DNA of 34,088 nt, taken from Bacillota bacterium (GTDB lineage: Bacteria > Bacillota > Clostridia > Christensenellales > UBA1242). Made by a program: the position numbers and the translations under genes. Of this stretch, positions 13,959-32,420 are shown one piece after another. Below the pieces are notes generated by a model. The model was given only the letters and a program-made list of their open reading frames with translations. It was not told the origin of the DNA and searched no databases. The stretch lies in NCBI GenBank assembly GCA_009780625.1, contig WQZR01000002.1, positions 1 to 34,088 on the forward strand, given 5' to 3'. Position 1 is the stretch's first letter. The number at the start of each line of letters is the position of its first letter.

Positions 13959-14551
13959 AAGATGTTGAAGCAAGAATTAAAATGGAAATGTCATACATTG
14001 GAAGCTGGTTTTTTATTAGTTGGAATAAGCAAACCCCAAAAGATTTAAGAGAGAAATATATCACATATAACAGCGAAGTTTTGTATAACATCAAAGCCTT
14101 CGAAAGGCAAAGAGAGACAAAGGTTTTTAAGCATATAACACTTGAAGATATTAAAAACATTTTCACAGAAGGGAAAGCTGTCACTGTTGATTTTTCTAAG
14201 TGTCATTCTGAGGAATCAATCAGTCTAGAAGAGTTATATGAAAAGGCGTGTTTCTATAGAGACAAGAAACAAGACTTTATAGAGTCGTTTGGAACGTTTC
14301 CAAATGCTCCAATAAAAGATGACGCAAACTATATTATGTATAACGAAAAGAAAACCAGATGTGCCGAGGTTTATAAAACAGGTGACTATTTTATGTATCG
14401 TGCGTGGCAAAGATGGTTTTTAGGAAAAGAGACAAAGTTTGTGTGGGTGCCGCTATATTTACAAGGTATTGATTTTTTTAGAACGAAAGAAGAGGCTATT
14501 GAGTTTATAAAGCCTTATATATATTTTGAAGAAAAAAGAATTGATTATTAA
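13940..14551 (+). CDS. hypothetical protein
   Basis: 203-codon ORF overlapping the PBP stop by 19 nt. No motif recognised. Confidence 0.6.
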   Translation: MSKKPIEDVEARIKMEMSYIGSWFFISWNKQTPKDLREKYITYNSEVLYNIKAFERQRETKVFKHITLEDIKNIFTEGKAVTVDFSKCHSEESISLEELYEKACFYRDKKQDFIESFGTFPNAPIKDDANYIMYNEKKTRCAEVYKTGDYFMYRAWQRWFLGKETKFVWVPLYLQGIDFFRTKEEAIEFIKPYIYFEEKRIDY

Positions 14552-14575
14552 AACAAAAACTCCATAATATATTTC

Positions 14576-14785
14576 ATGACTAAAAAGCCTAACAACAAAG
14601 CTAGTCGTGAAATTAAACTTTTTCGAAAGTCAGTTTTGGTTGGGTTTTTTATTTTTGTTCTTTGCGTTTCAATAATCTCAATTCACGCATTCCACCGCAA
14701 AGCACTTGTGGAAAGAATGGAGCATCAACAAGGGCAAATTGTTTCGGTGTTGAAAGATATTGAACAAGACCGAGACCAAATGTAG
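14576..14785 (+). CDS. small single-pass membrane protein, hypothetical
   Basis: 69 aa: basic N-terminus, TM segment VLVGFFIFVLCVSIISI, helical charged tail. TTGATT-16-CATAAT lies upstream with 7 nt to the ATG and no SD. Confidence 0.5.
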   Translation: MTKKPNNKASREIKLFRKSVLVGFFIFVLCVSIISIHAFHRKALVERMEHQQGQIVSVLKDIEQDRDQM

Positions 14786-14811
14786 TGGTCACTGTCTCAG
14801 AGACCCGGTTC

Positions 14812-14833
14812 GGGGCGTTGGGGACAACGCCCC
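14812..14833 (+). terminator. GC-rich hairpin (possible terminator or processing site) upstream of thiI
   Basis: ggggcgtt-ggggac-aacgcccc. The downstream tract is only weakly T-rich. Confidence 0.4.
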
Positions 14834-14849
14834 CTACACAATTATTTTA

Positions 14850-14858
14850 TGTTATAAT
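14850..14858 (+). promoter_or_regulatory. extended -10 promoter TGtTATAAT, 6 nt before ATG 14865
   Basis: TGt + TATAAT at 14850-14858, then gttttt, then ATG. No SD. Confidence 0.6.
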
Positions 14859-14864
14859 GTTTTT

Positions 14865-16073
14865 ATGAAAAACGTAATTATACTAAGCTTTGGCGAACTT
14901 TGGCTTAAAGGCGAAAACCGCGAGCATTTTATCAGACAACTTCTTGGCAACACAAAAAAAGCAATTGAAGAGTTTAACGCAACAATTAAAAGAACAGATG
15001 GTTCTGTTTTGGTATGCGGCTATAACCCAGATGACGAGCAAGATATTCTAAGAAATCTCTCCCTCGTTTTTGGCTATTCAAAAATAGTTAAGGCAATTGA
15101 GGTTGACGCAGACGAAAAGAAAATTTTAGACGCTGTTGTTAAACAACTTGCAGATATTTCCAAACCAATAACATTCAAGGTTCAAACAAAACGCACAGAC
15201 AAAACATTTCCAAAAACCAGCCCAGAGCTAAATGGCATTGTGGGGCACAAAGTCCTGACAACATATTCTCACTTCACCGTTGAAATTCATAACCCAGAAC
15301 TTGTTGTTGGGGTGAGTATCAAACAAAACAAAAAAGCATACATCAGTTTTGGAGAAGAAGAAGCGGCATGCGGACTTCCAGTTGGAGTTTCTGGTGCGGG
15401 TCTTTCACTTCTAAGCGGAGGAATAGATAGCCCAGTTGCAAGCCACCAAATGGCAAAACGCGGACTTGAAATTGTTTATATCAACTTCGAAAGTTTTCCA
15501 TACACAAGCCTTCAAGCAAAACAAAAGGTTTTAGATTTAGCAAAAATTCTTAAACCTGCAACTCTTTCAAAAATTTTGATTTATTGCAACATTAAAGAAA
15601 TTCAAGAAACTCTAAACAAAAACACAGACAAGAAATATGCTGTTGTTCTCACACGAGTTCTTATGGCAAGAATATGTGATGAAATTGTCCGCAACCCAAA
15701 ACTTTTGGAAGAAAGAATTTCAAACAAGAAACTGCTTCCAAAAAATAAACTCTCTATGCTGATTACTGGCGAGAGTCTTGGGCAAGTTGCAAGCCAAACA
15801 ATTGAGAACTTAACTGTTGTAAATAACGCGATAGAAACAATATTCATTCGCCCGCTTATTGCAAGAGATAAAGAAGAGATTATAAAGATTGCAAAAAAGA
15901 TTGGAACATTTGAAACTTCAATCAAACCATATGAAGATTCTTGCACAGTGTTTGCACCACAACATCCAATCACAAAAGCAAAACAAAAAGACGTCGACCT
16001 AGAACTTGCTCGCATCGACGCCGAAACACTTATCAAAAATGCTCTTTCAACTCTTGAGATTGTTGAGATTTAA
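14865..16073 (+). CDS. thiI: tRNA 4-thiouridine(8) synthase ThiI (short form, no rhodanese domain)
   Basis: MKNVIILSFGELWLKGENR is the canonical ThiI N-terminus. PP-loop motif LLSGGIDSPVA present. The 35-codon upstream extension in the track crosses the hairpin and promoter, so it was rejected. Confidence 0.9.
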   Translation: MKNVIILSFGELWLKGENREHFIRQLLGNTKKAIEEFNATIKRTDGSVLVCGYNPDDEQDILRNLSLVFGYSKIVKAIEVDADEKKILDAVVKQLADISKPITFKVQTKRTDKTFPKTSPELNGIVGHKVLTTYSHFTVEIHNPELVVGVSIKQNKKAYISFGEEEAACGLPVGVSGAGLSLLSGGIDSPVASHQMAKRGLEIVYINFESFPYTSLQAKQKVLDLAKILKPATLSKILIYCNIKEIQETLNKNTDKKYAVVLTRVLMARICDEIVRNPKLLEERISNKKLLPKNKLSMLITGESLGQVASQTIENLTVVNNAIETIFIRPLIARDKEEIIKIAKKIGTFETSIKPYEDSCTVFAPQHPITKAKQKDVDLELARIDAETLIKNALSTLEIVEI

Positions 16074-16074
16074 T

Positions 16075-17007
16075 TTACCACCAACCGATATAAATATCAT
16101 CAGCAAAAGGTTTGCCGTTGAAATAGTTTGCTATTTCTGTTGCACGTGCTGTGCCGTTTTCGTTTAAGAAAATTTCAATATAGGCATATCTTGCGCCGAT
16201 GTTTGGCCATTCCCAATATTGATATCGAACACCTGCAATGTTTGGGTGCCAAAAATCATTTGTTGTGAAACTTTCTTCTTTAACTCTGTGGAAATGGCTA
16301 TCTTTAATTGAAACAGTGATTGAAGAGGAAGGGTCGATAACATTTGTTCTGGTGTAAGCAAAACTGGTTGCGGTGAAGTCTGTTCTTGCGATATTTATTT
16401 CATAACTGAACGAGCCAGTTGCTGGAAGCATTGCAAGTGCATATCGGTTGAAGTTTACAACCAAGATGCCATTTTGTTCTTCAATTGTGCTTGGCCAGTT
16501 TATATTTTGGAAATAACCTTCGTGAACATAGTATAGAATTAATATATTGTTTTCAAAATATGCTTCGTTATATCTGGTTTCCAAATCTTTAAATGGGCAG
16601 TCGCACCATTGTCCGAATTCAGGGTCGTCGCAAAAACATCCATGTAGGGTTGCAACTGTAGGTTGAATCATTGCAAGTTCTGTTGTGTTTTGAACCACTG
16701 CAAAGAATGGGTGTCCCCACGTATTTTGCGGGGTGTGTATTCTAGAATCAAAAATGACACCAACTTTTTCATAATATTGAAAAAGGTCTGGCGTCATAGA
16801 CGACCAACTTGAATGACCATTTGAAATGAAAGGAATAGGGGAAACCACATCAGCGGCAACAATAACTTCCTGCCCAAGTGTTGGTCGCCAGTCTTCAGGC
16901 GGCGTCCAGTGTTTCCAAGGGTTTCCATCACCTCCGGCGTCGCATCCCATAAGAAATATTGAGAATAGCAGGGGTATAGCCAAAAATAGATGTTTAAACT
17001 TCTTCAT
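16075..17007 (-). CDS. lipoprotein, hypothetical (Cys-cluster CFCDDPEFGQWCDCP)
   Basis: MKKFKHLFLAIPLLFSIFLMGC is a signal peptide plus lipobox. GGAGG lies 8 nt upstream of ATG 17007 (the track start 17013 is a TTG). Confidence 0.75.
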   Translation of the reverse strand: MKKFKHLFLAIPLLFSIFLMGCDAGGDGNPWKHWTPPEDWRPTLGQEVIVAADVVSPIPFISNGHSSWSSMTPDLFQYYEKVGVIFDSRIHTPQNTWGHPFFAVVQNTTELAMIQPTVATLHGCFCDDPEFGQWCDCPFKDLETRYNEAYFENNILILYYVHEGYFQNINWPSTIEEQNGILVVNFNRYALAMLPATGSFSYEINIARTDFTATSFAYTRTNVIDPSSSITVSIKDSHFHRVKEESFTTNDFWHPNIAGVRYQYWEWPNIGARYAYIEIFLNENGTARATEIANYFNGKPFADDIYIGWW

Positions 17008-17055
17008 TCGCAAGCCCTCCTAAATATATTCGTTACTATAATTATATCGTAGTTC

Positions 17056-17730
17056 TTAGTCTTTAAAAAATAAAAATACGTTGTTTTCAGCCCATTCAAT
17101 AAAGTTGGAAATTGCGTCAATAAACCCATTCATCAGGGTTTCGTTTTCTTTTGTGAAGATTTTTGAGTTCACTTCAATTTGGCAAGCAAAAACTTTTCGC
17201 CCTTCGCCAAAATAGTATGTGATTGTTTTTGGTCCTGCTGAAAAGGGTTGGTCGAAGTGAACTGGCAAGCCTTGCTCTTCAAAGAACTTGATGAGAACAT
17301 CAAGCATAGACTCTTTTCTTTGAGTTTGCAGAAGATAGCCATGATATATGCCAACATTCACAAGTTCTTCTCTCCACGAAGCAAGGCTGTGAATATCTAG
17401 AACAAATCTGATTCTGTGGTCGATAATCATATCTTCCATTTTGGTCTTAAATTTACTTACCATATCGAAATTGGCATCGTTGTGTTCGTTTGCCACTTTT
17501 ATTATTGTGTTGCAACCTGTTTTATTGTTCAACGCTAAAGCAATGCCAATTGTGCTTGGCTCTGCAAATTTCTTTTTTCCAAGCCTAACCTGTCCAACGC
17601 CATGGGGAGCAGAAACAAGAACTCGAGAGTTTTCGCTTTCGATTGTGTGATATTCTTGTTCTCCTTCTTTTAGATGAAGAAGAGATTTTTTGAGTTTAGT
17701 AAACTCTTCAAATGTAACAGTATTCTTCAT
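17056..17730 (-). CDS. hypothetical hydrolase-like protein (possibly N-formylglutamate amidohydrolase fold)
   Basis: SAPHGVGQVRLGKKKFAEPST and FVLDIHS loosely resemble zinc amidohydrolase motifs. The assignment is weak. Confidence 0.6.
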   Translation of the reverse strand: MKNTVTFEEFTKLKKSLLHLKEGEQEYHTIESENSRVLVSAPHGVGQVRLGKKKFAEPSTIGIALALNNKTGCNTIIKVANEHNDANFDMVSKFKTKMEDMIIDHRIRFVLDIHSLASWREELVNVGIYHGYLLQTQRKESMLDVLIKFFEEQGLPVHFDQPFSAGPKTITYYFGEGRKVFACQIEVNSKIFTKENETLMNGFIDAISNFIEWAENNVFLFFKD

Positions 17731-17987: not shown

Positions 17988-18335
17988 ATGGCAACTTATC
18001 AAGAATTAATATATAAAGAAATAGGTGAAATAATTAAAATCGTCCAGTACATTGAATGGAATTTGCTTGGTAGATTAAAGCGAGATAATTTTGAAGAAAT
18101 GACACTCGGGCAAATAATAAAACTAATTCGCACAAAAAAAGTCCTTCACATAACTGCTATAGATGAGCTAGAAGAAATATTGAGAAAGAGAAATGACTTA
18201 GTGCATTCTTACTTTAAACGCAAAGATTTTGAAAAACATTGTAATAATGAATTTTTCCTTTCAAACGAATTGAGGTATCTTGAAAATTTTTGTGATCAGG
18301 TTCAAAAATTTAATGAGTGGCTTGTTAAAAATTAA
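17988..18335 (+). CDS. small HEPN-like protein (R-x4-H motif)
   Basis: 115 aa, predicted all-helical, with RNDLVH (R-N-x3-H) in the second half, as in HEPN RNase domains. Confidence 0.5.
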   Translation: MATYQELIYKEIGEIIKIVQYIEWNLLGRLKRDNFEEMTLGQIIKLIRTKKVLHITAIDELEEILRKRNDLVHSYFKRKDFEKHCNNEFFLSNELRYLENFCDQVQKFNEWLVKN

Positions 18336-18350
18336 TCCTCGCAACTAAAT

Positions 18351-18377
18351 AAAAAGAAGCCTTAGTGACTTCTTTTT
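18351..18377. terminator. bidirectional terminator between convergent genes
   Basis: aaaaagaag...cttcttttt hairpin flanked by A/T runs. It overlaps the stop of the minus-strand gene. Confidence 0.55.
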
Positions 18378-18864
18378 AGATACTGTGTTCATTAACAAAA
18401 GTTGAATTAATTTCTAGTTTATGCAACTTCATGTTAGCTACAATCATAAATCCCAATTCATACTTAAAGTAGCTATAACTGTCTGTCATTATTTTCAATC
18501 GCTCTTTGTCATCATCAAGTCCTTCTCTGTTGGTATCTTTTTTAATTTCTATACAAATTAGATTTCTAAATTCATTATTTTGGTCACTACTTCTTTTATG
18601 AACAATTAAATCTACAACAATTCTTCTATCGTCGTCAATAGTTTTAGGCAAATATTCATTGCCCTTAGCACCCCTGTTATACTCCACATCAACAAAGAAA
18701 TCTCTAAACTCAGAAGAGCTAACTTGTCTTTCGACATACATAGCAAATTTAGAACAAATGCATCTTTCACTTAAACCTCTAGAAATTAAATAACTTTCGT
18801 TATCATTGAAAGACTTGATTGCAAGTCTGACTACTTTTTCTAACTTTCTTTGTGTTTCTGTCAT
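18376..18864 (-). CDS. small PD-(D/E)XK-like nuclease-fold protein, hypothetical
   Basis: VVDLIVHKR...(20 aa)...ICIEIKKD fits hhhD-Xn-E-x-K. AAGGAG SD and TGcTATACT promoter lie upstream on the minus strand. Confidence 0.5.
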   Translation of the reverse strand: MTETQRKLEKVVRLAIKSFNDNESYLISRGLSERCICSKFAMYVERQVSSSEFRDFFVDVEYNRGAKGNEYLPKTIDDDRRIVVDLIVHKRSSDQNNEFRNLICIEIKKDTNREGLDDDKERLKIMTDSYSYFKYELGFMIVANMKLHKLEINSTFVNEHSI

Positions 18865-18902
18865 GCCGCTTTCTCCTTACTTGAATAGTATAGCATATTG
18901 TT

Positions 18903-18963
18903 ATCGGAAATATATATCGGAAATATGTGCAGATTTAGTATATTTCCTATACATATTTCCGAT
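18903..18963. promoter_or_regulatory. operator-like array: 2 direct + 2 inverted copies of ATCGGAAATAT
   Basis: ATCGGAAATAT at 18903-18913 and 18916-18926. Reverse-complement copies ATATTTCCtAT at 18940-18950 and ATATTTCCGAT at 18953-18963. There is a 13-nt phasing within each pair. The array sits in the divergent intergenic region upstream of the HTH-Fic gene. Confidence 0.6.
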
Positions 18964-18993
18964 AGTATGGTAGACTATGAAATAGGAGAGCGT

Positions 18994-19902
18994 ATGAAAT
19001 TTTTATCAGTAGCAGAAATTGCTGAAAAATTAAATCTGTCAGAAAGAAGAGTTAGAATGCTTTGTGCTGAAGGCAAGTTTGAAAATGCCTACCTTAAAGG
19101 TAAAACTTGGCACATACCAGAAGATTCGCAAAAGCCAGTTGATAGAAGAGTAAGCACTAAAACTCCAACGGGTGATTTAGGTGTAATCGATGAGCTTAAA
19201 AAACAAATAGATGCGTGTCGCCCTTTAACACAAGGAGAACGCGATAGGTTTAATGAAGAGTTTCTTGTTGAGTTTACTCATAACAGTAATGCTATCGAAG
19301 GAAACACTTTAACCCTAAGAGAGACAGCTCTTGTTTTGCAGGGAATAACAATCGACCAAAAGCCACTTAAAGACCATTTGGAAGCTATCGGACATAGAGA
19401 CGCTTTTAACTATGTTCTTGATATAGTGAAGCATAAGGAAGAACTTACCGAGTCAGTTATTAAAACCATTCATTCAATTGTATTGATGGATAAGCCAGAG
19501 GATAGAGGCGTTTACCGTAAAGTTCCTGTGACAATAGGTGGCTCTACATATACGCCACCACAACCTTACATAATACCGAAACAAATGGAAGAGTTAATGT
19601 ATAACCTTCAAGACTGGAAAAATACAAAACACATAGCTGAGCAAATAGCTTTGTTTCATTTAGTGTTTGAATCTATTCACCCATTTATTGACGGCAATGG
19701 CAGAACAGGTAGACTGCTTTTAAACCTGAAACTAATGCAGCAAGGCTATCCGCCAATTAACATTAAGTTTTCAGACCGTAGTAAGTATTACTCATGTTTT
19801 GAAAGCTATCATAAAACTGGCTCACCTAAAGCTATGATAAAGCTTGTAGCAAGCCTACTAGAAAAAGAAATGAAAGAGTATTTAAAGAAGTTTAAGGGAT
19901 AA
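18994..19902 (+). CDS. Fic-family protein (AMPylator-type) with N-terminal HTH and internal inhibitory motif
   Basis: HPFIDGNGRTGRLL matches the Fic core HxFx(D/E)GNGRxxR. SNAIEG matches the (S/T)xxxE(G/N) inhibitory helix. N-terminal SVAEIAEKLNLSERRVRMLCAEGKF is HTH-like. AGGAG lies 5 nt before ATG 18994; the 18898 extension was rejected. Confidence 0.85.
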   Translation: MKFLSVAEIAEKLNLSERRVRMLCAEGKFENAYLKGKTWHIPEDSQKPVDRRVSTKTPTGDLGVIDELKKQIDACRPLTQGERDRFNEEFLVEFTHNSNAIEGNTLTLRETALVLQGITIDQKPLKDHLEAIGHRDAFNYVLDIVKHKEELTESVIKTIHSIVLMDKPEDRGVYRKVPVTIGGSTYTPPQPYIIPKQMEELMYNLQDWKNTKHIAEQIALFHLVFESIHPFIDGNGRTGRLLLNLKLMQQGYPPINIKFSDRSKYYSCFESYHKTGSPKAMIKLVASLLEKEMKEYLKKFKG

Positions 19903-19930
19903 ACAAAATATTTATAAAGGAGTTTTAATT

Positions 19931-20170
19931 ATGGCAATTATAACAAAAATTGATAAGGGTGGAGAGAAAAAACTAACAAGGGCTATAACTTATTGCGAGG
20001 CTGAATATAATGAATATTTTGAAGGACATAAAAATGAAAAGTTTGTTGGGATACAAACCTTCGGAAGTAAAGATAGAGTTGATCAGGGAAAACAAAGCCA
20101 AGTTATTCATTTAAATAAGGAAACTGCAATAAAACTTGTTGAATTATTAAGAAAGTCTTTTAACCTATAA
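19931..20170 (+). CDS. hypothetical small protein
   Basis: 79 aa with AAGGAG SD, 28 nt downstream of the Fic gene. No motif recognised. Confidence 0.5.
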   Translation: MAIITKIDKGGEKKLTRAITYCEAEYNEYFEGHKNEKFVGIQTFGSKDRVDQGKQSQVIHLNKETAIKLVELLRKSFNL

Positions 20171-20199
20171 CAATATTAGATAACGAAACTGGTAGAACT

Positions 20200-20225
20200 A
20201 AGGGTAGTAATTAAACTGCTCTTTT
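20200..20225 (+). terminator. intrinsic terminator; second member of the 25-bp repeat pair
   Basis: gggtag-taattaaa-ctgctc + TTTT. Apart from one C/T change and a 3-nt insertion in the loop, it matches aagggcagtaatactgctctttt at 17946-17968. Confidence 0.55.
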
Positions 20226-20242
20226 ATTATCCAACAACATGG

Positions 20243-20316
20243 GCTAATAAATGCAACTCATTTATTAGTATTTAGCTAATAAATGAGTTGACAGGAGCTA
20301 ATTTATGTGGTAGTAT
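20243..20316 (+). promoter_or_regulatory. promoter TTGACA-17-TGgTAGTAT with repeated GCTAATAAATG operator-like motifs
   Basis: Perfect palindrome CTAATAAATG-caact-CATTTATTAG (20244-20268). GCTAATAAATG repeats at 20275-20285, abutting TTGACA (20288-20293). Variant GCTAATTTATG (20297-20307) lies in the spacer. Extended -10 at 20308-20316. Confidence 0.6.
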
Positions 20317-20348
20317 GAATTAACATATTTATACAGGAGGACAATAAT

Positions 20349-21122
20349 ATGGAAGACAATGTAAAAAAAGAAAAAGCAAAAAGTAAGGACTATCCTGCAC
20401 TTACACTTATGGCAGCAGTAGAGTTTTTGCAAGCTTTTAAAGATTACCCATTAAACAAACAAATCTCTTACGCTGTTGCGGCTAAGGTGAAAGGAGTATC
20501 GGAGACGACTAAGTCTTTTAGATATGCTATCAGCGCGGCAAGGCAGTATGGGTTGATTTCAACGGGAGGAAGTGCTTTCTCGTTTCTAGATGCGGGGAAA
20601 AAACTGATACGGCCAACTGATGACGCAGCAACAATTTCATCATTAAAAATGCAATGTTTTTCTAACCCGAAATTGTATGGAGAGTTGATCTCTCAATATA
20701 AGGGAAGATCGATACCAAACATCACGACACTTGAGAATCTTTTAGTAACTTATAATGGAATTATGGCTTCTGCTGCAAATACAGCTGCTCAAACATTCAT
20801 TGACACAGCCACTGAAGTTGGTGCGAATAAAAGTGGAGTTTTAGACTTAGATGTTGATGCTATCGAAGCAGTAGTATCTGGAACTGTTATGGAAGCGCAG
20901 CCAGAAAGAGTTGATGAAGTTTCAAAAGTTGCTGTTTCGGTAACTCCACAAAAAATGTTATTGGAAGAAGGGTTTGAAGCTCCATTAACTATACCTTTTG
21001 GAGAACAAAAAAAGGCTATATTATATATGCCGCAAAATGTAGAGAAAGATGATGCAGAATATGCACTCGAAATGATAAAGTTAATGTTTAAAAAGATTTA
21101 TGGGGTTGGAAAGAATGATTAA
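20349..21122 (+). CDS. uncharacterised protein with putative N-terminal winged-helix domain (operon gene 1)
   Basis: AGGAGG SD. The N-terminus (...SFRYAISAARQYGLISTGGSAFSFLDAGKKL) has a wHTH-like pattern. Ala/Val-rich linker. C-terminal LTIPFGEQKKAILYMPQNVEKDDAEYALEMIKLMF. No family recognised. Confidence 0.7.
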   Translation: MEDNVKKEKAKSKDYPALTLMAAVEFLQAFKDYPLNKQISYAVAAKVKGVSETTKSFRYAISAARQYGLISTGGSAFSFLDAGKKLIRPTDDAATISSLKMQCFSNPKLYGELISQYKGRSIPNITTLENLLVTYNGIMASAANTAAQTFIDTATEVGANKSGVLDLDVDAIEAVVSGTVMEAQPERVDEVSKVAVSVTPQKMLLEEGFEAPLTIPFGEQKKAILYMPQNVEKDDAEYALEMIKLMFKKIYGVGKND

Positions 21123-22077
21123 CGAAATAACAAGACTTTTTCAGTCAGCAGAAAAGACCATTGACAAGCCGATATTGCCATCATACATTTTTTATGTTTC
21201 TGACAAAGGAATTGATAAAGCAATTTATGATTTAGGCACAAAGAAAACACATTTGGAAATCTGCGAAGTTGAGCAGGAGTTTTTAATAGATATGGGCTTA
21301 ATGAACAAGGTTAACTATTCTTTGACTGACGAAGGAAAAGGATATTTCGAAACGCGATTCATACATGGAAATATTGCCGAAGCAGAATTATTTATAAAAC
21401 AGAAGCTTCAACAAAACCCTATAGTAAATCTTGTCTGCCAAGTATTCTATGGCAGAGGAAAAATCGGTTATCAGCAGTTAGTTGCTTTGCTTAACCATCA
21501 TAAAGTAGATGATCATGAACTTACCAGGCAAAATATTTTCCCCTTTCTCGTTTTGTTAAATAAGTTTAAAATATTGGTATTGGACAAGAAAAATGGGACA
21601 TTCTATTTAAAAGAACCACTTGTAAGTGATGTTGTGATTAAACAATATTATATATCGCCAAGTACTCCATTTAGTAATTTGCTTAATATAAAGAAAACTC
21701 TAAGGTCTTGCAAGGGTGACATTTATTGGATAGATAAACACTTTAGAAAAGAAGCATTCGAGATAATCATTGATGGGTTGTCACCAGATGGTGTGAAATC
21801 ACTGACTATTATATCGACGGATGAAAATGCTACTCAAAGTGCAAAAGCAGATTTCGAACTATTGAAACAGGAACTTGCCGCTCGGAACATTATTCTTGCT
21901 TGGCTAGTATTAACGGATAAAACTTTAAAGTTGCATGACAGATGGCTTATTTCTGACAATAATGTTTATAACATACCTCCAGTTCTGGCTATTATTAGAG
22001 GGCAAATGGCAGAAATAATTAAGACTGAAAGCAAAATAGATTTAAAACTACTTATACAAAATAGTGTAAGTGTTTAA
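21115..22077 (+). CDS. uncharacterised protein: two wHTH-like modules + C-terminal PLD-fold (MIT_C-like, HDR motif) module (operon gene 2)
   Basis: ATG 21115 overlaps the upstream stop by 8 nt. wHTH-like segments: LIDMGLMNKVNYSLTDEGKGYF and GYQQLVALLN...KILVLDKKNGTFYLK. The C-terminus (IYWIDKHF...LTIISTDEN...LKLHDRWLISDNNVYNIPP) resembles, from memory, the MIT_C module (..IxDPY...HDRxI..). Confidence 0.7.
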   Translation: MINEITRLFQSAEKTIDKPILPSYIFYVSDKGIDKAIYDLGTKKTHLEICEVEQEFLIDMGLMNKVNYSLTDEGKGYFETRFIHGNIAEAELFIKQKLQQNPIVNLVCQVFYGRGKIGYQQLVALLNHHKVDDHELTRQNIFPFLVLLNKFKILVLDKKNGTFYLKEPLVSDVVIKQYYISPSTPFSNLLNIKKTLRSCKGDIYWIDKHFRKEAFEIIIDGLSPDGVKSLTIISTDENATQSAKADFELLKQELAARNIILAWLVLTDKTLKLHDRWLISDNNVYNIPPVLAIIRGQMAEIIKTESKIDLKLLIQNSVSV

Positions 22078-22099
22078 AGAAGAATTTAAATAATAGAAA

Positions 22100-22126
22100 G
22101 CTGAGTTTACAAACTCGGCCTTTTTT
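22100..22126 (+). terminator. intrinsic terminator closing the two-gene operon
   Basis: gctgagtt-taca-aactcggc stem followed by a T6 run. Confidence 0.7.
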
Positions 22127-22198
22127 ATTTGTAGAATTTTGTAAGATAATAGGGTGAATTATGTTAAACTGGACCATTAGTAATTTGGAGAGTTTAGA

Positions 22199-23491
22199 GT
22201 GAAGGATAAGCCAAGGTTTACATTTATTGATTTGTTTGCAGGAGTTGGTGGTTTTCACCAAGCACTAGAATCGCTTGGCGGTGAATGTATTGCTTTTTCC
22301 GAAATAAATAGAGATTGTGTTGAAGTTTATAAAAACAACTTTCCAGGAGCAGAAGATATTGGCGATATAAATAAATGGAAGGAAAAAGGCTTACCTAAAT
22401 TTGATGTACTATGTGGTGGTTTCCCGTGTCAACCTTTTAGTAAAGCAGGAAGACAAGATGGTTTTAAAGATGAAAGAGGAAATTTTTTTGATGTAATAAT
22501 CGACATATTAAAAGAACATAAAGAGTGTAAATTTATAATTTTAGAAAATGTTCGTAATCTGTCTGATAAAACCGAAAACTGGGCACATATTCAAGAGAGA
22601 CTACAAGAGTTAGATTTTATTGTGACTGAGGAAGCTCTTGTTTTATCACCTTGCCAGTTTGGTGATCCGAGAATACCTCAAATAAGAGAAAGGGTTTATA
22701 TTCTTGGTATAAGGAAGGGAATAAGAGATAAAAAAAGATTATCAAATGGTTGTATCCATTTAGAAGAATTAGGGTTGCAGAACCTACCTAAAAAAGGCTC
22801 TTTGAGAAATGGTGATGCTTGGAATATTTTAAATTCAGAGGTAGTTGACAAAAAATATAACTTAGATGACAAAAAAGTTAAAATACTAAACATTTGGGAT
22901 GAATTTAGAAAGGGTACCAAATACGAACCAAGTAATGTTCCTATTTGGTTAGATTACTTCGGATATAAACTTGATGATAATGAGTTTTACAAAAAGAAAG
23001 ATAGAAATGGGAAAGTCTATAAAGAACTGCCAGAGTGGAAGCAGCACTTTGTTGATAAAAATAGAAAGTTTTATCTAAAGCATAAAGGGTTCATAGACGG
23101 GTGGATAGAAAAACATAATATGTTAGAAGAACATTCAGTTTACAAAAAATTTGAATGGAACTGTGGGGCTGACTATAAATTTCTAAAAGATACAATTATA
23201 CAATTCAGACACTCTGGTATTCGTGCGAAACGACCAAACTTTTTTCCTGCATTGGTTGCTATAAACAATACACCTGTTATTTGGGATAAGAGCAAAAACT
23301 TGTATAGATACATTACTCCACGAGAAGCTGCGAACTTACAAAGTTTCAAGCCCGATTATAAATTTGGAAAAAATGACTCCCAAACGTATAAACAACTTGG
23401 AAATGCTGTGAATGTTGAAGTTGTGAAAATATTAACTGAGAAATTGCTAGGCTTTGCGAAAGATGATTGGAATAAAAAGGAAGACAAATAA
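22199..23491 (+). CDS. DNA (cytosine-5)-methyltransferase
   Basis: Motif I FIDLFAGVGGF, motif IV GGFPCQPFS, motif VI ILENVRNL, motif X YKQLGNAVNV. GTG start with GGAG 8 nt upstream. Confidence 0.92.
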   Translation: MKDKPRFTFIDLFAGVGGFHQALESLGGECIAFSEINRDCVEVYKNNFPGAEDIGDINKWKEKGLPKFDVLCGGFPCQPFSKAGRQDGFKDERGNFFDVIIDILKEHKECKFIILENVRNLSDKTENWAHIQERLQELDFIVTEEALVLSPCQFGDPRIPQIRERVYILGIRKGIRDKKRLSNGCIHLEELGLQNLPKKGSLRNGDAWNILNSEVVDKKYNLDDKKVKILNIWDEFRKGTKYEPSNVPIWLDYFGYKLDDNEFYKKKDRNGKVYKELPEWKQHFVDKNRKFYLKHKGFIDGWIEKHNMLEEHSVYKKFEWNCGADYKFLKDTIIQFRHSGIRAKRPNFFPALVAINNTPVIWDKSKNLYRYITPREAANLQSFKPDYKFGKNDSQTYKQLGNAVNVEVVKILTEKLLGFAKDDWNKKEDK

Positions 23492-25026
23492 TGGACAGAA
23501 AAATAGAATTTAACATACAGCCAGAAGCTGGGATAATGAATGTGTTTTCTAGGCTTAATTATGAAGCACAATATGCTCTTGCTGAATTTGTTGACAATTC
23601 AACGCAGTCGTATTTTAATAATGAGAAAAAAATAAAGGATTCAAATAAGAACTTCGAGCGTCTAGAAATAGATATTGTTTACGATGAAGAAAAGGATAAA
23701 CTTTCGATCACTGACAATGCTTATGGAATGAATTTAGAAGAGTTTAAATATGCTATTCTTTTAGATTCAAAACATCCTAACCAACAAGGAAGAAATGAGT
23801 TTGGTATGGGGTTAAAAACTGCTGCAAGTTGGTTTGGAAACAATTGGAGTGTTTTTAGTACTCAACTAGGCAGAGATAAAATTTATTCGGCAAATGTAGA
23901 TATAAATCATCTTAAAAATAATAGAGTTAATACTATAGATATAATTGAATCGAAAACAACAATCAATAGTCATAGTACGATAATCGTTATAAGAGAATTA
24001 ACTAAAAAGTTAACAAGAAAAACCCTTAACAGAGTTAGAGACTTACTTGGTAGTATGTATAGAAGAGATATTGAATCTGGAAAAGTACAGATTACTCTGA
24101 ACGGAGAAATTATTACTTATCAACCTAATGCTGTTCTTCAGTATAAAGATAGAACGTGGAAGAAAGAATTAAATTTCAATGTTGAGTTTAGAGATAAAAT
24201 TTATCATGTGGACGGTTTTGTTGCAATTATGAATCCTGGTAGTTTTCGTAAGGCTGGGTTTGCCTTGTTTAGAAACAATAGAGTTGTGATTGGTGGAGAT
24301 GACTGCAATTATAAGCCGTTGGAAATATTTGGTCAACTTCAAAGCCAGATAGCATTAAAATTATTCGGTGAATTAAATATGAACTCGTTTCCTGTTAATC
24401 AAGCAAAAGCTGGTTTCATTTGGAACGACGGTCTAGAAGAAGAATTTATCAGAGTGTTAAAAGAAAATATAGAAGAATATCGAAAGATAGCTGATATGTC
24501 TAAACAATCACGAGAAGAAGTAGAGCAATTTTCACCGCAAAAATCTGAAAGCGTTGAACAAGATACTAAATTAGCTCTGGAAAAACTGCAGCGCGAACCT
24601 GATACTGAAATTGTGTTAGAGGAAGATAGCGATTTAGAAGAAACCGACTTGGAAGCTTTTCAAAAGAATTTTGTAGATTCACCTAGTGAAATCGAGAGTG
24701 TTGGAACACTTAGGAAGTATGAAGTACCATTAAATAATTTTGAAAAGATTAAACTATGCGTCACGTGGACAATTGGAAAAAGTGATTATTGGATTGACTT
24801 GAATGAAGAGAAAGAGGAGATACAGGTTATTATCAACATTGACCATCCATTCTTTAAACCTCATTCGAACGAGGAGCACTTTAAAAAAGTTTTAGAAAAG
24901 TTTGTTATTGCATTTGTTGTAGCCGAAAAGCAGGCACTTTCAACATCTGGAAAGGATGGCTATGTATCTCCGTCAGCTATTCGAAATAAAATTAACGAAA
25001 TTCTATCAAAAATGTCTAAGGAGTAG
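23491..25026 (+). CDS. GHKL-superfamily ATPase (HATPase_c_3 / MutL-Hsp90-like N-terminal domain)
   Basis: N box EFVDNSTQS, G1 ITDNAYGM, G2 FGMGLKTAASW. Start shares a base with the methyltransferase stop (TAATG). Acidic linker in the C-terminal half. Confidence 0.8.
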   Translation: MDRKIEFNIQPEAGIMNVFSRLNYEAQYALAEFVDNSTQSYFNNEKKIKDSNKNFERLEIDIVYDEEKDKLSITDNAYGMNLEEFKYAILLDSKHPNQQGRNEFGMGLKTAASWFGNNWSVFSTQLGRDKIYSANVDINHLKNNRVNTIDIIESKTTINSHSTIIVIRELTKKLTRKTLNRVRDLLGSMYRRDIESGKVQITLNGEIITYQPNAVLQYKDRTWKKELNFNVEFRDKIYHVDGFVAIMNPGSFRKAGFALFRNNRVVIGGDDCNYKPLEIFGQLQSQIALKLFGELNMNSFPVNQAKAGFIWNDGLEEEFIRVLKENIEEYRKIADMSKQSREEVEQFSPQKSESVEQDTKLALEKLQREPDTEIVLEEDSDLEETDLEAFQKNFVDSPSEIESVGTLRKYEVPLNNFEKIKLCVTWTIGKSDYWIDLNEEKEEIQVIINIDHPFFKPHSNEEHFKKVLEKFVIAFVVAEKQALSTSGKDGYVSPSAIRNKINEILSKMSKE

Positions 25027-25027
25027 T

Positions 25028-27169
25028 ATGGAAAAATATAAAATTAAAAGCGATGAAGAGATGAAACCTGTCAAATTCGGCAAGTTTTGTGAGATGGTTT
25101 ATGAGAAACAGAAGAAATCGTATGGTGAAGTTTCTGCGGATGAAACTAGAAAAAGAATAAAACATATTTATCAAGAATCACAGAAATTACTTTCTAGAAA
25201 AGAAGAACGAAATTTATTACTTGTGGGTAAAGTTCAATCTGGTAAGACATCTAATCTTGAGATGTTTACAGCTTTTGCCTTTGACAATGGGTACAATTTG
25301 CTAATTATATATGGTGGTTATGACGATACTTTGCTTAATCAAACTAACACCCGCTTTAAAGAAACATTTGAAATTCCTATTTCAGATTCTTTAGACTCAC
25401 CGCATCCAGCATTTTTTAGCACTTCTAAACACGGCAGCAAAGTAGATTTTGAATATCTTGATGATAGTGTTATTCAAGACATGGTTGAAAATAATAAACC
25501 AATAATTATAACTGCGATGAAAAGACCTAAAGCGCTCGCAAATATAAATTCGTTTTTGAAAAGACTAAAATTAAAAAACGTTAAAACTTTTATCATCGAC
25601 GATGAAGGCGACCAAGCAAGTTTGAATACAGCTAAAGATAAAGAAAACTTTGAAGAGTCATCTGCAACTTATAAAGCAATTTGCACAATGAAAGACTTAC
25701 TTGGAAATCCATTATATTTGTCAGTTACTGCCACACCGCAGGCAAATATATTTTCGCCTACGATAAGCAAACTTAATCCGTTAGATATTAAACTTATTGA
25801 CGCTGGAAATGGATATTGTGGTTCCGCGGTTTATCATCTTGGCGATCCAGATTTAATAACTGAGATTGATGATTTTGAAGATGAGGTTGACGGAAGTAAA
25901 ATGCCAGAATCTATGAAGTATGCAATAAATTACTATTTAATAGCTGCTGCAATAATGGATGAAAAAGGTATAGGTGGTGCTGATATTTTAATTCATTCAG
26001 CTAGAGAAGTCGCAATTCATAGAAGGATTTGTTCCTTTATTCAAACATACATTGATGAATTGAAAAATGCAATCAAGTTAGAACAAAAACTTGACATAGA
26101 TAACTTTCTAAAAGAATTAGAGTTTGTGTTTTATACTGAATTTAGCAAGACTATTCAAAAACAATACAATATTGCGGCGTTGAGGGAACGTATTTTTAAG
26201 GTTGTTAATAAGACATTTGTAATAATGAAAAACAACCCAGGAAATGCAAGTACGCTTCCTCTTGAACAATATAAACCTTACAAAATATTTGTTGGAGGCG
26301 ACTTACTACAGAGAGGTGTTACTTTTAAGAATCTAGTTGTCACATATTTTACTAGATGGGCTAAATCTGGAAACATGGATACTACTCTTCAGAGGGCAAG
26401 GTGGTTTGGGTATAGGGAAAAATTTATTGATTTATGTAAAATTTTTACTACAAACGAAATTCAAAGAGAGTTTACTAATCTTGCTGATATAGAAATTGAC
26501 TTATGGGATCAATTTGAAGGTATTCAAAATGGCGAACTTCAAATCGAAAATATCATTATTCCAGCGCAGGACTCTATCTTGAGACCAACAAGAAGTAATG
26601 TTGCAACATTTGCAAAGGTTGAGTTTGCAAGAAGATGGACTAAACAACAATTAGGTATATTTGATAAAAACACTGTCGATAAAAACAATAAAATTATTAG
26701 AGAATTTATTTCTAATAATAAATTCATTGAGTCAAACATTGCAAGAACTGATAAGGAATCTTCTTGCTCTTACGCGTTGGTTAAGACGGCTGATGTTAAA
26801 AAACTTATGGACGCTCTAGCACAGTCGATATTTTTAATGCAGCCATTTAGTCTTAATGCTCATATTATCGAACACTTATTAGCCAGTCAAAAAGAGATTC
26901 CAATTATACTCATGAAAGGTAATCGTGAGCGTAAATTTGATAGTTCTAACCGAATTAACAACATCCATCAAGGTCCAGATAAATCTGAGATTTCTGCAAG
27001 AAAATATATGGGTGATACTGAAGTTGTAATAGACAAAGATAAAATAAATATACAGATACACTATATTGTTCCAAAAAAAGAAGGAGCCGTAAGAGCCGAA
27101 ATTGGTCAGTATATGTTTGCTATATTTACTCCTGGAAAACAAAGTTATTATGTTAGAGGGAAATTATAA
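25028..27169 (+). CDS. Z1-domain protein (SF2 helicase-like P-loop NTPase)
   Basis: Walker A GKVQSGKTSN, Walker B/DExD-like IIDDEGDQAS, SVTATPQAN, QRGVTF, TLQRARWFGYR. AAGGAG SD; ATG 25028 lies 1 nt after the upstream stop. Architecture as recalled for Z1 proteins that neighbour C5-methyltransferases. Confidence 0.75.
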   Translation: MEKYKIKSDEEMKPVKFGKFCEMVYEKQKKSYGEVSADETRKRIKHIYQESQKLLSRKEERNLLLVGKVQSGKTSNLEMFTAFAFDNGYNLLIIYGGYDDTLLNQTNTRFKETFEIPISDSLDSPHPAFFSTSKHGSKVDFEYLDDSVIQDMVENNKPIIITAMKRPKALANINSFLKRLKLKNVKTFIIDDEGDQASLNTAKDKENFEESSATYKAICTMKDLLGNPLYLSVTATPQANIFSPTISKLNPLDIKLIDAGNGYCGSAVYHLGDPDLITEIDDFEDEVDGSKMPESMKYAINYYLIAAAIMDEKGIGGADILIHSAREVAIHRRICSFIQTYIDELKNAIKLEQKLDIDNFLKELEFVFYTEFSKTIQKQYNIAALRERIFKVVNKTFVIMKNNPGNASTLPLEQYKPYKIFVGGDLLQRGVTFKNLVVTYFTRWAKSGNMDTTLQRARWFGYREKFIDLCKIFTTNEIQREFTNLADIEIDLWDQFEGIQNGELQIENIIIPAQDSILRPTRSNVATFAKVEFARRWTKQQLGIFDKNTVDKNNKIIREFISNNKFIESNIARTDKESSCSYALVKTADVKKLMDALAQSIFLMQPFSLNAHIIEHLLASQKEIPIILMKGNRERKFDSSNRINNIHQGPDKSEISARKYMGDTEVVIDKDKINIQIHYIVPKKEGAVRAEIGQYMFAIFTPGKQSYYVRGKL

Positions 27170-27170
27170 T

Positions 27171-28082
27171 ATGGTAGAAAAAATCAAAAATAAAATTAAG
27201 CAGTTGAAACCAAAACAAGATTTTCTTTACCTAGTAGAAAAAATCAATAACAAAGCTGGTTTCTTCTTGTTGAACGACCAAATTGTTTTTGTTGAAGAAA
27301 ACTTCAATAATGAAAAAAAAGATTTAACAGAAACAACTCACTTAACCCTAAGAACATCGGTTGAAATCACTGCTGTTGAGAATGCACCTTCTTTCAAGGA
27401 AGGTTTATATAATTTTATTGTTTTTAAAAATCAAGTTGATAGTGAAGAATTTGAAAGTTTTGTGAACCTTTGCGTTCTATATGTGAAAGATAATACTATT
27501 GGGTTTTCAAAATTCTTTTTTTCTATATATAATCTATTTCAGAAGAAAGAAGAGAAGTATAAGAACTTAGTAGGATTTTGGGGGGAGTTAAAGTTTTTAT
27601 TACTCGCAGACAAATTGGGGGCGGATTTATCTCAAAATTGGCATAGACTGACAAACGATAAGTATGACTTTGTTGTAAGGAAATTTCCATTTGATATAAA
27701 GACCACTATAACAAAAGATGGTTTTGTAAAAATAAAACATAGCCAGATATTTAATGCTGACAATGTTTATCTTGTAGTTTGCGAAGCAGAGATAAGCAAC
27801 GCGGGAGAGACATTGATGGATTTGGTATCACAAATTAAAACTAACAAAACTTTTATTAGAAACGTTCCATTTTTATTAGCGTTAGAAAAAGAAATGACAA
27901 AAGTCTATAAAGAGGATGCTGAAAAGGAAAAATTCTCCTTGCTCGGTTTTAAGATTTTCTTCACTAAAGATATGCCTACGATACAAAACATTCCAAATAA
28001 CGTTATTGATGTAGAGTATAGGTATAATTACATGATGAACAAAAGTATTTCATTTAAAGATTTTGTCAAACTCTTAAAATAA
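27171..28082 (+). CDS. PD-(D/E)XK motif protein (putative nuclease effector)
   Basis: GFWGELKFLL ... DKYDFVV ... FDIKTT fits E...D...(D/E)xK as in the PD-(D/E)XK motif proteins found with Z1/GHKL genes. ATG 27171 lies 1 nt after the Z1 stop. Confidence 0.65.
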   Translation: MVEKIKNKIKQLKPKQDFLYLVEKINNKAGFFLLNDQIVFVEENFNNEKKDLTETTHLTLRTSVEITAVENAPSFKEGLYNFIVFKNQVDSEEFESFVNLCVLYVKDNTIGFSKFFFSIYNLFQKKEEKYKNLVGFWGELKFLLLADKLGADLSQNWHRLTNDKYDFVVRKFPFDIKTTITKDGFVKIKHSQIFNADNVYLVVCEAEISNAGETLMDLVSQIKTNKTFIRNVPFLLALEKEMTKVYKEDAEKEKFSLLGFKIFFTKDMPTIQNIPNNVIDVEYRYNYMMNKSISFKDFVKLLK

Positions 28083-28083
28083 T

Positions 28084-28107
28084 AAAAGACTGAGCAATCA
28101 GTCTTTT
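28084..28107. terminator. bidirectional terminator between convergent genes
   Basis: aaaagactga-gcaa-tcagtctttt. It overlaps the stop of the minus-strand Rep gene. Confidence 0.7.
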
Positions 28108-28829
28108 TTAATTCTCACAACTTTGATGTGTTCTTTGTCTTTGACTAGGCTGACTTTTGTATCACTGTCGAGTCTCATGTTTGAAAAGATGATATCGTCA
28201 AAGTCTTCGTCTTCCATGTAGAGAATAACCTTTTCTTTTTTGTTTAGGTTAAGAGTACGGTAGTAGTATCTTTTATTGTAGTTATCTAGTATGCAGGGTT
28301 CATATAACTGCTTAGTTAGGTATTTAAGACAATAGTTTATAAACTTGTGAGCTTCGGTTTTTGGAAAATGGATGATAGTTGAAAAGCCGAAATCGAATAG
28401 GGGAAGGTTGTAGACTTCTGCACCGTTTGAGCTCATCTCTTCGCCTGTGTGATAGTCTGTTGCTCTTTCCATATATTCTGTTAAATCAATGCTGCCGACG
28501 AGTATATGTAAATGTAGAGCCTTTTTTCCTTCTTCGTTCTTCTTTTTGTGCCGTTCTGGTATTGCTAAAAGTTTCACATCTTTGTTTATTCTTTGGAGCT
28601 TTTGACGGAAGAGTTTCCAAACATATTTGACGGCTTCGTCGTCGTATCTGTCAATAAGTTCGTCTGAAAAAGTTAAGGTTAGGAAATAGTCCCAATCGTT
28701 AGCTAATCCATATCCATAGAAATTATCTTTTGCTCGTCGACGACTTCGTCTTATATTTTCTTTAATCTTTTCCATATCAAATTGTTTATCGGTGAAATTG
28801 AAGAAATCTTTTTTACACGGAACAATCAT
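28098..28829 (-). CDS. rolling-circle replication initiator (HUH Rep) protein, orphan
   Basis: Motif 1 FLTLTF, motif 2 HLHILV (HUH), motif 3 YCLKYLTK (catalytic Tyr context), as in plasmid and Microviridae-like RCR Reps. AAGGAG SD. Confidence 0.7.
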   Translation of the reverse strand: MIVPCKKDFFNFTDKQFDMEKIKENIRRSRRRAKDNFYGYGLANDWDYFLTLTFSDELIDRYDDEAVKYVWKLFRQKLQRINKDVKLLAIPERHKKKNEEGKKALHLHILVGSIDLTEYMERATDYHTGEEMSSNGAEVYNLPLFDFGFSTIIHFPKTEAHKFINYCLKYLTKQLYEPCILDNYNKRYYYRTLNLNKKEKVILYMEDEDFDDIIFSNMRLDSDTKVSLVKDKEHIKVVRIKKD

Positions 28830-28934
28830 TCGTTGGTCATGCTCCTTTACAAATTATAATTATTGGTATTATATCATTTTTCGACATATTTCTAAAGACC
28901 TTTTTCCAAAGCTGAGCCAAATTTAACCAAAAAA

Positions 28935-28943
28935 TGCTATAAT
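28935..28943 (+). promoter_or_regulatory. extended -10 promoter TGcTATAAT for the R-M gene
   Basis: TGcTATAAT is followed by a 34-nt leader with AAGGAG at 28967-28972 and ATG 28978. Confidence 0.55.
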
Positions 28944-28977
28944 GAAAAAATGATAAGTTTTAACTAAGGAGAAGTCG

Positions 28978-32121: not shown

Positions 32122-32125
32122 AAAA

Positions 32126-32157
32126 AAAGCAACAGATTAACTGTTGCTTTCTTTTTT
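32126..32157. terminator. bidirectional intrinsic terminator
   Basis: aaagcaacag-attaa-ctgttgcttt, flanked by A7 upstream and T6 downstream. Confidence 0.75.
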
Positions 32158-32289
32158 CAAGAACCACCCTCTTTCGTCTCGCTGTGCGATGTGAGAATAG
32201 TTTATGAATGGTTTCTGTTGTCGTTCGACCACCAGCACTGGCACTCCTTTGAAGAAGAAATAGCCAACGGTGTTCAAACGCCAACACAC

Positions 32290-32367
<78 letters not shown>

Positions 32368-32391
32368 ATGTGTATTCTTTGCAGATTATTA

Positions 32392-32420
32392 AGTATATGC
32401 TTATTTGATTAATTTGTCAA
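32392..32420 (-). promoter_or_regulatory. sigma-A promoter TTGACA-17-TATACT for the tRNA gene
   Basis: The minus strand reads TTGACA (32420-32415), a 17-nt spacer, then TATACT (32397-32392), about 24 nt upstream of tRNA position 1. Confidence 0.65.

Follow-up and report, generated by a model that had tools for sequence, protein, structure and literature searches.

Two overlapping genes in a 34,088-nt stretch of a Bacillota genome (contig WQZR01000002.1, positions 1 to 34,088 of the forward strand, assembly GCA_009780625.1, order Christensenellales; hereafter the window) form a self-contained operon, and there is about an even chance that they constitute an undescribed conflict module of the toxin-antitoxin (TA) or abortive infection (Abi) type, which would be autonomous, autoregulated and horizontally mobile. 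Gene 1 encodes a winged helix-turn-helix (wHTH) protein, predicted to be an autorepressor and the partner or neutraliser of gene 2. Gene 2 encodes a protein with two wHTH modules and a C-terminal domain of the phospholipase D (PLD) fold carrying a His-Asp-Arg (HDR) motif; this protein is a predicted effector that would bind DNA and act as a phosphodiesterase or nuclease. A TA/AbiE-like conflict module is favoured because the anatomy of the operon, the obligate pairing of the genes, the existence of an orphan gene 1 and the patchy, mobile distribution match such modules. The narrower proposal, that the pair is an anti-phage or addiction system in which a catalytically active HDR-type PLD nuclease is licensed by release from its tethered wHTH partner, is possible and is held with distinctly more doubt.

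Nucleases of the PLD type, sensors with wHTH domains and TA-like logic have each been described before. The combination of gene 1 and gene 2 is unnamed in all databases searched and absent from PADLOC 2023 and from the literature searched. A first-pass annotation of the window, made from the DNA letters only, likewise knew of no described defence system of this composition, and neither protein gave a significant match in PADLOC-DB v2 (2023).

Pairing and distribution of the two genes

Gene 1 was found directly 5' of gene 2 in 5/5 genome loci and in every contig or metagenome locus with enough flanking sequence, with a gap of -20 to +12 nt between the genes. The same arrangement was present in all 23 non-redundant pairs, and the first-pass description of a self-contained two-gene operon holds for all homologous loci examined. 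The pairwise identities of the gene 1 proteins and of the gene 2 proteins in the 23 pairs are also correlated (r = 0.83, a value reached in 0 of 2000 Mantel permutations). With strict pairing and correlated divergence, the pair moves between genomes and evolves as a single unit.

No gene 2 without gene 1 was found among the loci examined with enough flank. An orphan gene 1, apparently intact and with 48% identity, is present in Desulfovibrio sp. 86 (LT608333.1, positions 10001-10786 of the extracted locus), which belongs to a different phylum. It has its own TTGACA promoter and, on its 3' side, a DUF2188 gene but no gene 2, and the search for a gene 2 remnant there gave nothing convincing (1 of the 78 queries gave E = 0.019). 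A distant relative, which has only the N-terminal 170 aa in common with gene 1, also has no adjoining gene 2. A decaying pair was seen in another locus (L038, 7106-8456), where gene 1 is frameshifted near its C-terminal module and an in-frame internal deletion has removed the wHTH region of gene 2, leaving a protein of 205 aa that keeps the PLD-like domain.

The pair is carried by 5 of 185,579 species genomes and its distribution is patchy. Clostridia predominate among the sources that have names (Christensenellaceae, Aminipila, Sedimentibacter, Massiliimalia, Gemmiger and Limiplasma), in addition to one Desulfovibrio. A phage or plasmid origin was considered for the pair and rejected, as no copy was found in phage, plasmid or IMG/VR viral data.

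Operon structure and regulatory signals

The features of the operon, in order along the window, are as follows.

20200-20223, +, weak terminator-like hairpin (9 pairs, 3 of them G-C) and T-run, 3' of the preceding 79-aa open reading frame (ORF), from a consensus scan
20243-20307, sites on +, -, + and +, operator-like cluster of four GCTAATWWATG sites
20288-20316, +, candidate sigma-70-type promoter TTGACA-17-TAGTAT with an extended -10 TG, from a consensus scan
20335-20340, +, putative ribosome-binding site AGGAGG of gene 1, 8 nt ahead of its ATG, read from the sequence
20349-21122, +, gene 1, 257 aa
21115-22077, +, gene 2, ATG start at 21115, 320 aa
22100-22127, +, intrinsic terminator after gene 2, with an 8-bp stem containing 4 G-C pairs, a 4-nt loop and then CTTTTTTATT

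The candidate promoter, with its -35 element TTGACA at 20288-20293, a 17-nt spacer and a -10 element TAGTAT at 20311-20316 preceded by TG, is the strong promoter named in the first-pass annotation. The consensus scan of the region found 10 promoters, compared with 9.8 expected from shuffled sequence, which is no enrichment. As such matches are no commoner than in shuffles, the credibility of the promoter rests on its conservation across loci. TTGACA was found 54-67 nt 5' of the gene 1 start in 13/14 loci, usually with a TG-extended -10 element.

Three exact copies of GCTAATWWATG are present at 20243-20253, 20275-20285 and 20297-20307, all on the + strand, together with an inverted site with one mismatch at 20259-20269 (-). 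Elsewhere in the window there are 0 exact copies and 3 further one-mismatch copies, compared with about 3.7 expected window-wide. Since the rest of the window is at background level, four sites within 65 bp are far beyond chance. The perfect 10-bp palindrome reported in the first-pass annotation was recovered (20244-20253 / 20259-20268), while a larger perfect inverted repeat of 15 bp (20254-20268 / 20276-20290), the right arm of which enters the -35 element, had been missed. The same annotation had further copies of the repeat overlapping both the -35 element and the spacer; the spacer copy, the last of the four sites, was found there, while the third 11-mer stops 2 nt short of the -35 element.

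For the comparison with homologous loci, the half-site RCTAAT[AT] was derived from the window, and the promoter windows of the other 13 loci were searched for it. Seven sites were found in 5/13 of these windows, compared with 0.69 expected from the locus-wide density (Poisson p of about 8.5e-6), and a count of 7 was reached in 0.25% of shuffles. Examples are the palindromes GCTAATATATTAGC in a Clostridiaceae locus (L018) and ATATTAGC-N9-GCTAATAT in locus L013. The promoter and, in part, the operator half-site are conserved among homologous loci.

The two genes overlap by 8 nt (ATGATTAA), and this overlap, the translational coupling that it implied in the first-pass annotation and the dedicated terminator are all confirmed in the sequence. 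An alternative in-frame ATG of gene 2 at 21100 (325 aa) is chosen by some gene callers. The region upstream of this ATG has no G-rich ribosome-binding site, and its use would extend an N-terminus that is already long compared with the homologues. The hairpin of the terminator (22100-22119), together with its T-run, has a folding energy of -14 kcal/mol (z = -3.2). The hairpin at 20200-20223 would shield the operon from upstream transcription.

The gene 1 protein

In the gene 1 protein a wHTH domain (about 20-80) precedes a second module, helical and wHTH-like (about 93-165), that ends in a beta-hairpin. After this comes a linker (171-206) that is disordered and hypervariable in the alignment, and then a tail (213-251) that forms a conserved beta-beta-alpha unit. 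The AlphaFold2 (AF2) model has a predicted local distance difference test score (pLDDT) of 75 overall and is confident only in the N-terminal 160 aa, where the score is above 90. It agrees with the winged helix, linker and small C-terminal domain that had been described in the first-pass annotation. This arrangement, in which a disordered linker joins the N-terminal DNA-binding part to a conserved C-terminal module, is the classic one in type II antitoxins and in AbiEi.

No match to gene 1 was found in Pfam, NCBIfam, PHROGs or PADLOC, and none of the 67 clusters of its family (at 90% identity) is named. Foldseek searches against the Protein Data Bank (PDB) and viral structures gave only generic wHTH or dimerisation-domain matches, all with E > 1e-3, such as DtxR/MntR, the N-domains of O-methyltransferases and a FokI-like phage protein. 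The possibility that gene 1 and the N-terminus of gene 2 are paralogues was rejected (hhalign probability 0.2%).

The gene 2 protein and its C-terminal domain

The AF2 model of the gene 2 protein, made from a 58-sequence alignment, has a pLDDT of 91.9 and a predicted template modelling score (pTM) of 0.84. It consists of wHTH-like modules at about 22-70 and about 102-165, the second of which has the canonical H-beta-H-H-beta-beta order, and a C-terminal domain at about 176-320. In this model the C-terminal domain has the PLD alpha/beta fold, since Foldseek matched it to MITD1 MIT_C, FAM83 DUF1669, PLD3, the phosphatidylserine synthase PssA, Streptomyces PLD, the NgoAVII R protein and Zucchini, with probabilities of 0.97-1.0. 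For the MITD1 structures 4a5z and 2ymb, the target-normalised template modelling score was 0.57-0.61 over about 157 columns.

Nine residues (N188, W205, D207, E253, H274, D275, R276, N286 and P288) are conserved at 86-100% over 128 diverse sequences, including multidomain fusions. The motif H274-D-R276-(x)4-D281-(x)4-N286, in which HDR is invariant, can be written HxR(x)4D(x)4N, and as a sequence pattern it parallels the catalytic HxK(x)4D(x)6GSxN of PLD enzymes. It departs from the canonical HxK(x)4D(x)6G(S/G)xN in having an invariant R for K and a shorter spacing to N.

At the level of sequence profiles the relationships are faint. The Pfam family MIT_C (PF16565) matched gene 2 with 15.8 bits (E = 0.014), below its gathering threshold of 25 bits, and was matched by 6/58 relatives and 8/25 diverse C-domains (best E = 8.4e-5), none of them listed as reaching the cut-off. 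DUF7295 was also sub-threshold for gene 2 and was weakly matched by 27/58 family members; literature searches for DUF7295 found nothing. PLDc_2 gave a single marginal match (E = 0.1) among 25 relatives, and the PADLOC model PDC-S05 matched the C-domain below threshold (E = 0.0045, 14.5 bits). A PDC-S05 protein has been tested and was reported with a Virulence_RhuM domain (10.1101/2024.09.26.614923). Profile searches of the PDB, with both the full-length gene 2 family and the diverse C-domain profile, gave no meaningful match, so that it is by fold comparison alone that gene 2 is linked to PLD. The family comprises 78 clusters at 90% identity, all unnamed. The first-pass description of two wHTH modules and a PLD-fold, MIT_C-like domain with HDR in gene 2 is thus supported by the AF2 model, the Foldseek matches and the motif, and its likeness to MIT_C stands for fold and motif and falls for Pfam membership by score.

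With the full-length gene 2 model, the best Foldseek matches in the PDB were the archaeal regulators TrmBL2 and TrmB (E down to 3e-6), in which an N-terminal wHTH is likewise followed by a PLD-like domain. These matches, in which the PLD-like domain is non-catalytic, speak for a purely regulatory pair with no enzyme, where gene 2 would act as a transcription factor or chromatin protein of the TrmB kind, its PLD-like domain binding a small molecule, and gene 1 as a second DNA-binding regulator, their targets lying elsewhere in the genome or in a mobile element. The MIT_C and FAM83 domains are also regarded as non-catalytic, and the operator-like repeats suggest that the promoter is bound by something. 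Nevertheless, we regard a purely regulatory role as quite improbable. Neither TrmB (PF01978) nor Regulator_TrmB (PF11495) matched gene 2 at E <= 1 or was among the top families of its 58 relatives. The PLD-like subdomain of TrmB has no HKD-like motif, and it binds sugars jointly with another C-terminal subdomain, which gene 2 lacks. TrmB is a host regulator, whereas gene 1 and gene 2 are a mobile pair, the patchy distribution of which is atypical for a housekeeping regulator, and no target gene is conserved in the neighbourhood. In addition, the HKD-like constellation is kept even where the C-domain is fused to NTPases and helicases, which makes a role as ligand-sensing transcription factor implausible.

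The same domain in other proteins

An exhaustive search with the C-domain profile found 553 clusters (50% identity) at E <= 1e-3. Many of these are proteins of about 300 aa with the architecture of gene 2, and in others the C-domain alone matches. The HDR-PLD domain was found at the C-terminus of GmrSD_N (DUF262) proteins, SNF2 helicases and an AAA_35/STAND-like NTPase, and several of the GmrSD_N fusions carry additional wHTH or BpuJI_N recognition domains. GmrSD, SNF2-PLD and STAND defence proteins often bear a nuclease or effector domain at the C-terminus. The distant and multidomain relatives are annotated only as 'hypothetical protein' or 'AAA-like domain-containing protein'.

Five GmrSD_N (DUF262) proteins of 800-1070 aa (P0176, P0193, P0205, P0232 and P0234) have the HDR-PLD domain at the C-terminus, the position where GmrSD itself has HNH/DUF1524. 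They look like an uncharacterised branch of Type IV-like enzymes.

The HDR-type PLD domain itself is not new, as a very similar domain, PB-PLD1 (ParB-associated PLD-like), was described computationally in 2025 as the C-terminal effector of Menshen NsnC, in which the HDR motif and an acidic residue after beta2 are conserved (Li et al., NAR 2025, PMC12065111). It was reported to be most similar to MIT_C and to occur also in BrxL C-termini, with HDR present in eukaryotic MITD1 as well, and it was predicted to be a nuclease, which was explicitly left unproven (PMC12065111). The gene 2 domain was compared with this published description and fits it: it has a PLD-like fold, a conserved acidic residue after beta2 and an invariant HDR, MIT_C is its nearest Pfam family, and its relatives include fusions to the ParB-like GmrSD_N/DUF262, as 'ParB-associated' implies. 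It differs in that two wHTH modules share its polypeptide and a wHTH protein encoded by a gene of its own is its dedicated partner. The locus in the window has none of the Nsn genes (NsnA/B/C) and is neither Menshen nor BREX.

The fusion to GmrSD_N, which is the N-domain in a family of Type IV enzymes, also bears on a second alternative, in which gene 2 is a restriction-type endonuclease, Type IV (modification-dependent) or IIS-like, that recognises and cuts foreign or modified DNA. Gene 1 would then be a required partner rather than an inhibitor, serving as specificity or sensor subunit or as expression controller. Like the enzymes BfiI, NgoAVII R and SauUSI and the PLD-wH enzymes Aba4572I/CbaI (PMC11037411), gene 2 combines, within one polypeptide, a single PLD domain with a domain for DNA recognition; these enzymes are found in defence islands, and NgoAVII R is among the Foldseek matches of gene 2. 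Fusions of winged helices to nucleases, including PLD-wH, have been described as 6mA-dependent Type IV enzymes (PMC11037411), and FokI and BpuJI recognise DNA through tandem wHTH modules (PMC12065111). Restriction-modification (R-M) genes are often neighbours of the pair, and no methyltransferase is conserved at the pair-bearing loci, which fits Type IV logic.

We consider this alternative unlikely on several grounds. Gene 1 is obligatory in 23/23 loci and has diverged together with gene 2, whereas Type IV wH-nuclease enzymes act as single chains. Gene 1 is laid out like an antitoxin, its DNA-binding domain being joined by a disordered linker to a small tail, and an orphan gene 1 exists. In gene 2 the wHTH modules precede the PLD domain, and both this order and the HxR(x)4D(x)4N motif are unlike the described PLD-wH enzymes, which have HxK-type motifs, the canonical form being HxK(x)4D(x)6GSxN. 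The partner gene of gene 2 is obligatory, and a conserved cognate methyltransferase is lacking.

Genomic neighbourhoods

The genes flanking the pair are unrelated between loci. In three loci (L003, L006 and L007) the pair is inserted alone among housekeeping genes, and in two (L002 and L012) it adjoins large serine recombinases or other mobile-element genes. Four loci place it in defence islands, together with Hachiman and an AlwI-type R-M system (L009), a BfiI-like R-M system and T5orf172 (L013), a retron reverse transcriptase and PRTase-CE (L014), or SIR2-HerA and Thoeris (L018). UzuA (Uzume), MADS genes and PDC-S41 were found in further defence contexts that bear the pair. The genes of the L018 island lie directly 3' of the pair, at 12112-17721 of that locus (a Clostridiaceae metagenome-assembled genome), and comprise SIR2_2 and DUF87 (SIR2-HerA-like), SIR2-STALD (ThsA-like) and a ThsB TIR gene (Thoeris-like).

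In the window, the pair lies in a lower-GC stretch of about 14 kb (18000-32400, GC fraction 0.31-0.34 compared with 0.35-0.41 in the flanks), which ends at a tRNA-Met gene (32291-32367, -) and has housekeeping genes for a penicillin-binding protein and ThiI upstream. This stretch looks like a genomic or defence island inserted beside tRNA-Met. It also holds a Fic gene, a Dcm-GHKL-Z1-DUF4420 operon, a Rep-like gene and a Type ISP-like enzyme.

Upstream, at 18898-20170 (+), a Fic protein of 334 aa with an N-terminal HTH is followed, 29 nt on, by the 79-aa ORF (weak match to FRD2, E = 0.058), and the two may be a separate toxin-partner pair directly upstream of the gene 1/gene 2 operon. Downstream, at 22199-28082, four overlapping genes encode a Dcm C5-methyltransferase, a GHKL ATPase (HATPase_c_3), a Z1-domain protein and a DUF4420 protein (putative PD-(D/E)XK), with weak or partial similarity in PADLOC to MzaB, MzaC and a 'Type II helicase' model. 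Beyond them, a lone gene at 28098-28829 (-) is replication-initiator-like (REP_ORF2-G2P, E = 1.3e-10) and may be what is left of a small rolling-circle element or single-stranded DNA phage; next to it, at 28978-32121 (+), is a gene for a single-chain Type ISP / IIG R-M enzyme of 1047 aa (N6_Mtase, Eco57I, Type_ISP_C).

As the first-pass annotation had observed, the pair is co-oriented with, and directly upstream of, the methyltransferase/GHKL/Z1 operon, which has the make-up described there. With only 121 nt between them, the pair could be a C-protein-like controller, or an accessory specificity component, of this operon. The stretch from the terminator to the GTG start of dcm (22199) yielded no sigma-70-like promoter of at least 9/12, so that some read-through into dcm is possible in this genome, and the arrangement recurs in three other contigs of apparently the same organism. 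However, the pair has a dedicated terminator ahead of that operon. In the remaining 22 non-redundant loci, tblastn found a Dcm-like gene only in one (L036, 25% identity, about 1.7 kb upstream of the pair) and a GHKL, Z1 or DUF4420 homologue in 0/22. Because Dcm, GHKL, Z1 and DUF4420 are never conserved neighbours, the controller or accessory role offered in the first-pass annotation is removed from serious consideration, and we give it hardly any credence. The pair is independent of its neighbouring genes.

Proposed mode of action

If the pair acts as a TA- or Abi-type conflict module, the strong, constitutive-type promoter would drive a bicistronic, translationally coupled mRNA. A dimer of the gene 1 wHTH protein would bind the RCTAAT-type inverted repeats around and over the -35 element and spacer and so repress its own operon, while the beta-beta-alpha tail of gene 1, tethered by the disordered linker of about 35 aa, may restrain the gene 2 protein. 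The latter would bind DNA through its two wHTH modules, and its single HDR-type PLD domain would need to dimerise to form an active site, as in Nuc and BfiI. Loss or titration of gene 1, possibly triggered by phage shut-off of host expression, by loss of the element or by a phage-derived signal, would then free gene 2 to cut or tightly bind DNA, and either the invader or the cell would be stopped.

The likeness to AbiE, in which a wHTH antitoxin (AbiEi) is paired with a toxin (AbiEii), and to type II TA systems lies in an operon of two genes under tight translational coupling, the first of which encodes the DNA-binding protein, in the strong promoter overlaid by inverted repeats, an arrangement conserved across the pair loci, in a first protein with an N-terminal wHTH and a separate C-terminal module, and in a mobile, patchy distribution with some copies in defence islands. 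Homology is another matter. Neither protein matches the AbiEi or AbiEii models of Pfam and PADLOC, and the putative toxin is a wHTH-PLD protein, whereas AbiEii is a nucleotidyltransferase. With regard to known antitoxin and toxin families in general, gene 1 is without a match and gene 2 matches only weak PLD-clan or unknown-function families.

Several points weigh against a TA- or Abi-type conflict module. Both proteins are far larger than typical TA components. The contact between the gene 1 tail and gene 2 is conjectural, and we place rather less than even confidence in it. We know of no HDR-type PLD domain with demonstrated catalytic activity, and the related folds have other functions, as the MIT_C domain of MITD1 binds membranes and the PLD-like domain of TrmB binds sugars. 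Because of these precedents, the conserved pocket of gene 2 could serve for ligand binding rather than catalysis. The operator half-site is missing in 8/13 of the other loci, which may rely on diverged sites. The asymmetry between an orphan gene 1 and the absence of an orphan gene 2 rests on one orphan. Defence islands or mobile elements make up about half of the contexts, and an enrichment in defence islands, for which the first-pass annotation had proposed a check, is an impression and not a statistic against a matched background. Finally, tblastn found 0 matches in 50,697 phage records and 72,556 plasmids, and no relative was found in IMG/VR contigs.

Implications

For the annotation of this genome, the matter of the neighbouring operon is settled, as the pair is not part of the Dcm-Z1 system. 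If the proposed model of a TA- or Abi-type module is right, a compact, self-regulating module adds a new combination to bacterial conflict systems, in which a wHTH protein with an intrinsically disordered region and a tail is joined with a wHTH-wHTH-HDR-PLD protein. Whether PLD domains of the HDR class are enzymes is a hypothesis that has been raised and left open (PMC12065111). Should the effector prove to be an active nuclease released from its partner, the pair would be the first experimentally tractable, minimal two-protein system for the HDR class of MIT_C, PB-PLD1 and BrxL C-termini, including human MITD1. The HDR variant of the PLD domain is widespread (553 clusters), and a small pair of a toxic and a neutralising protein would be an easy system in which to establish its activity.

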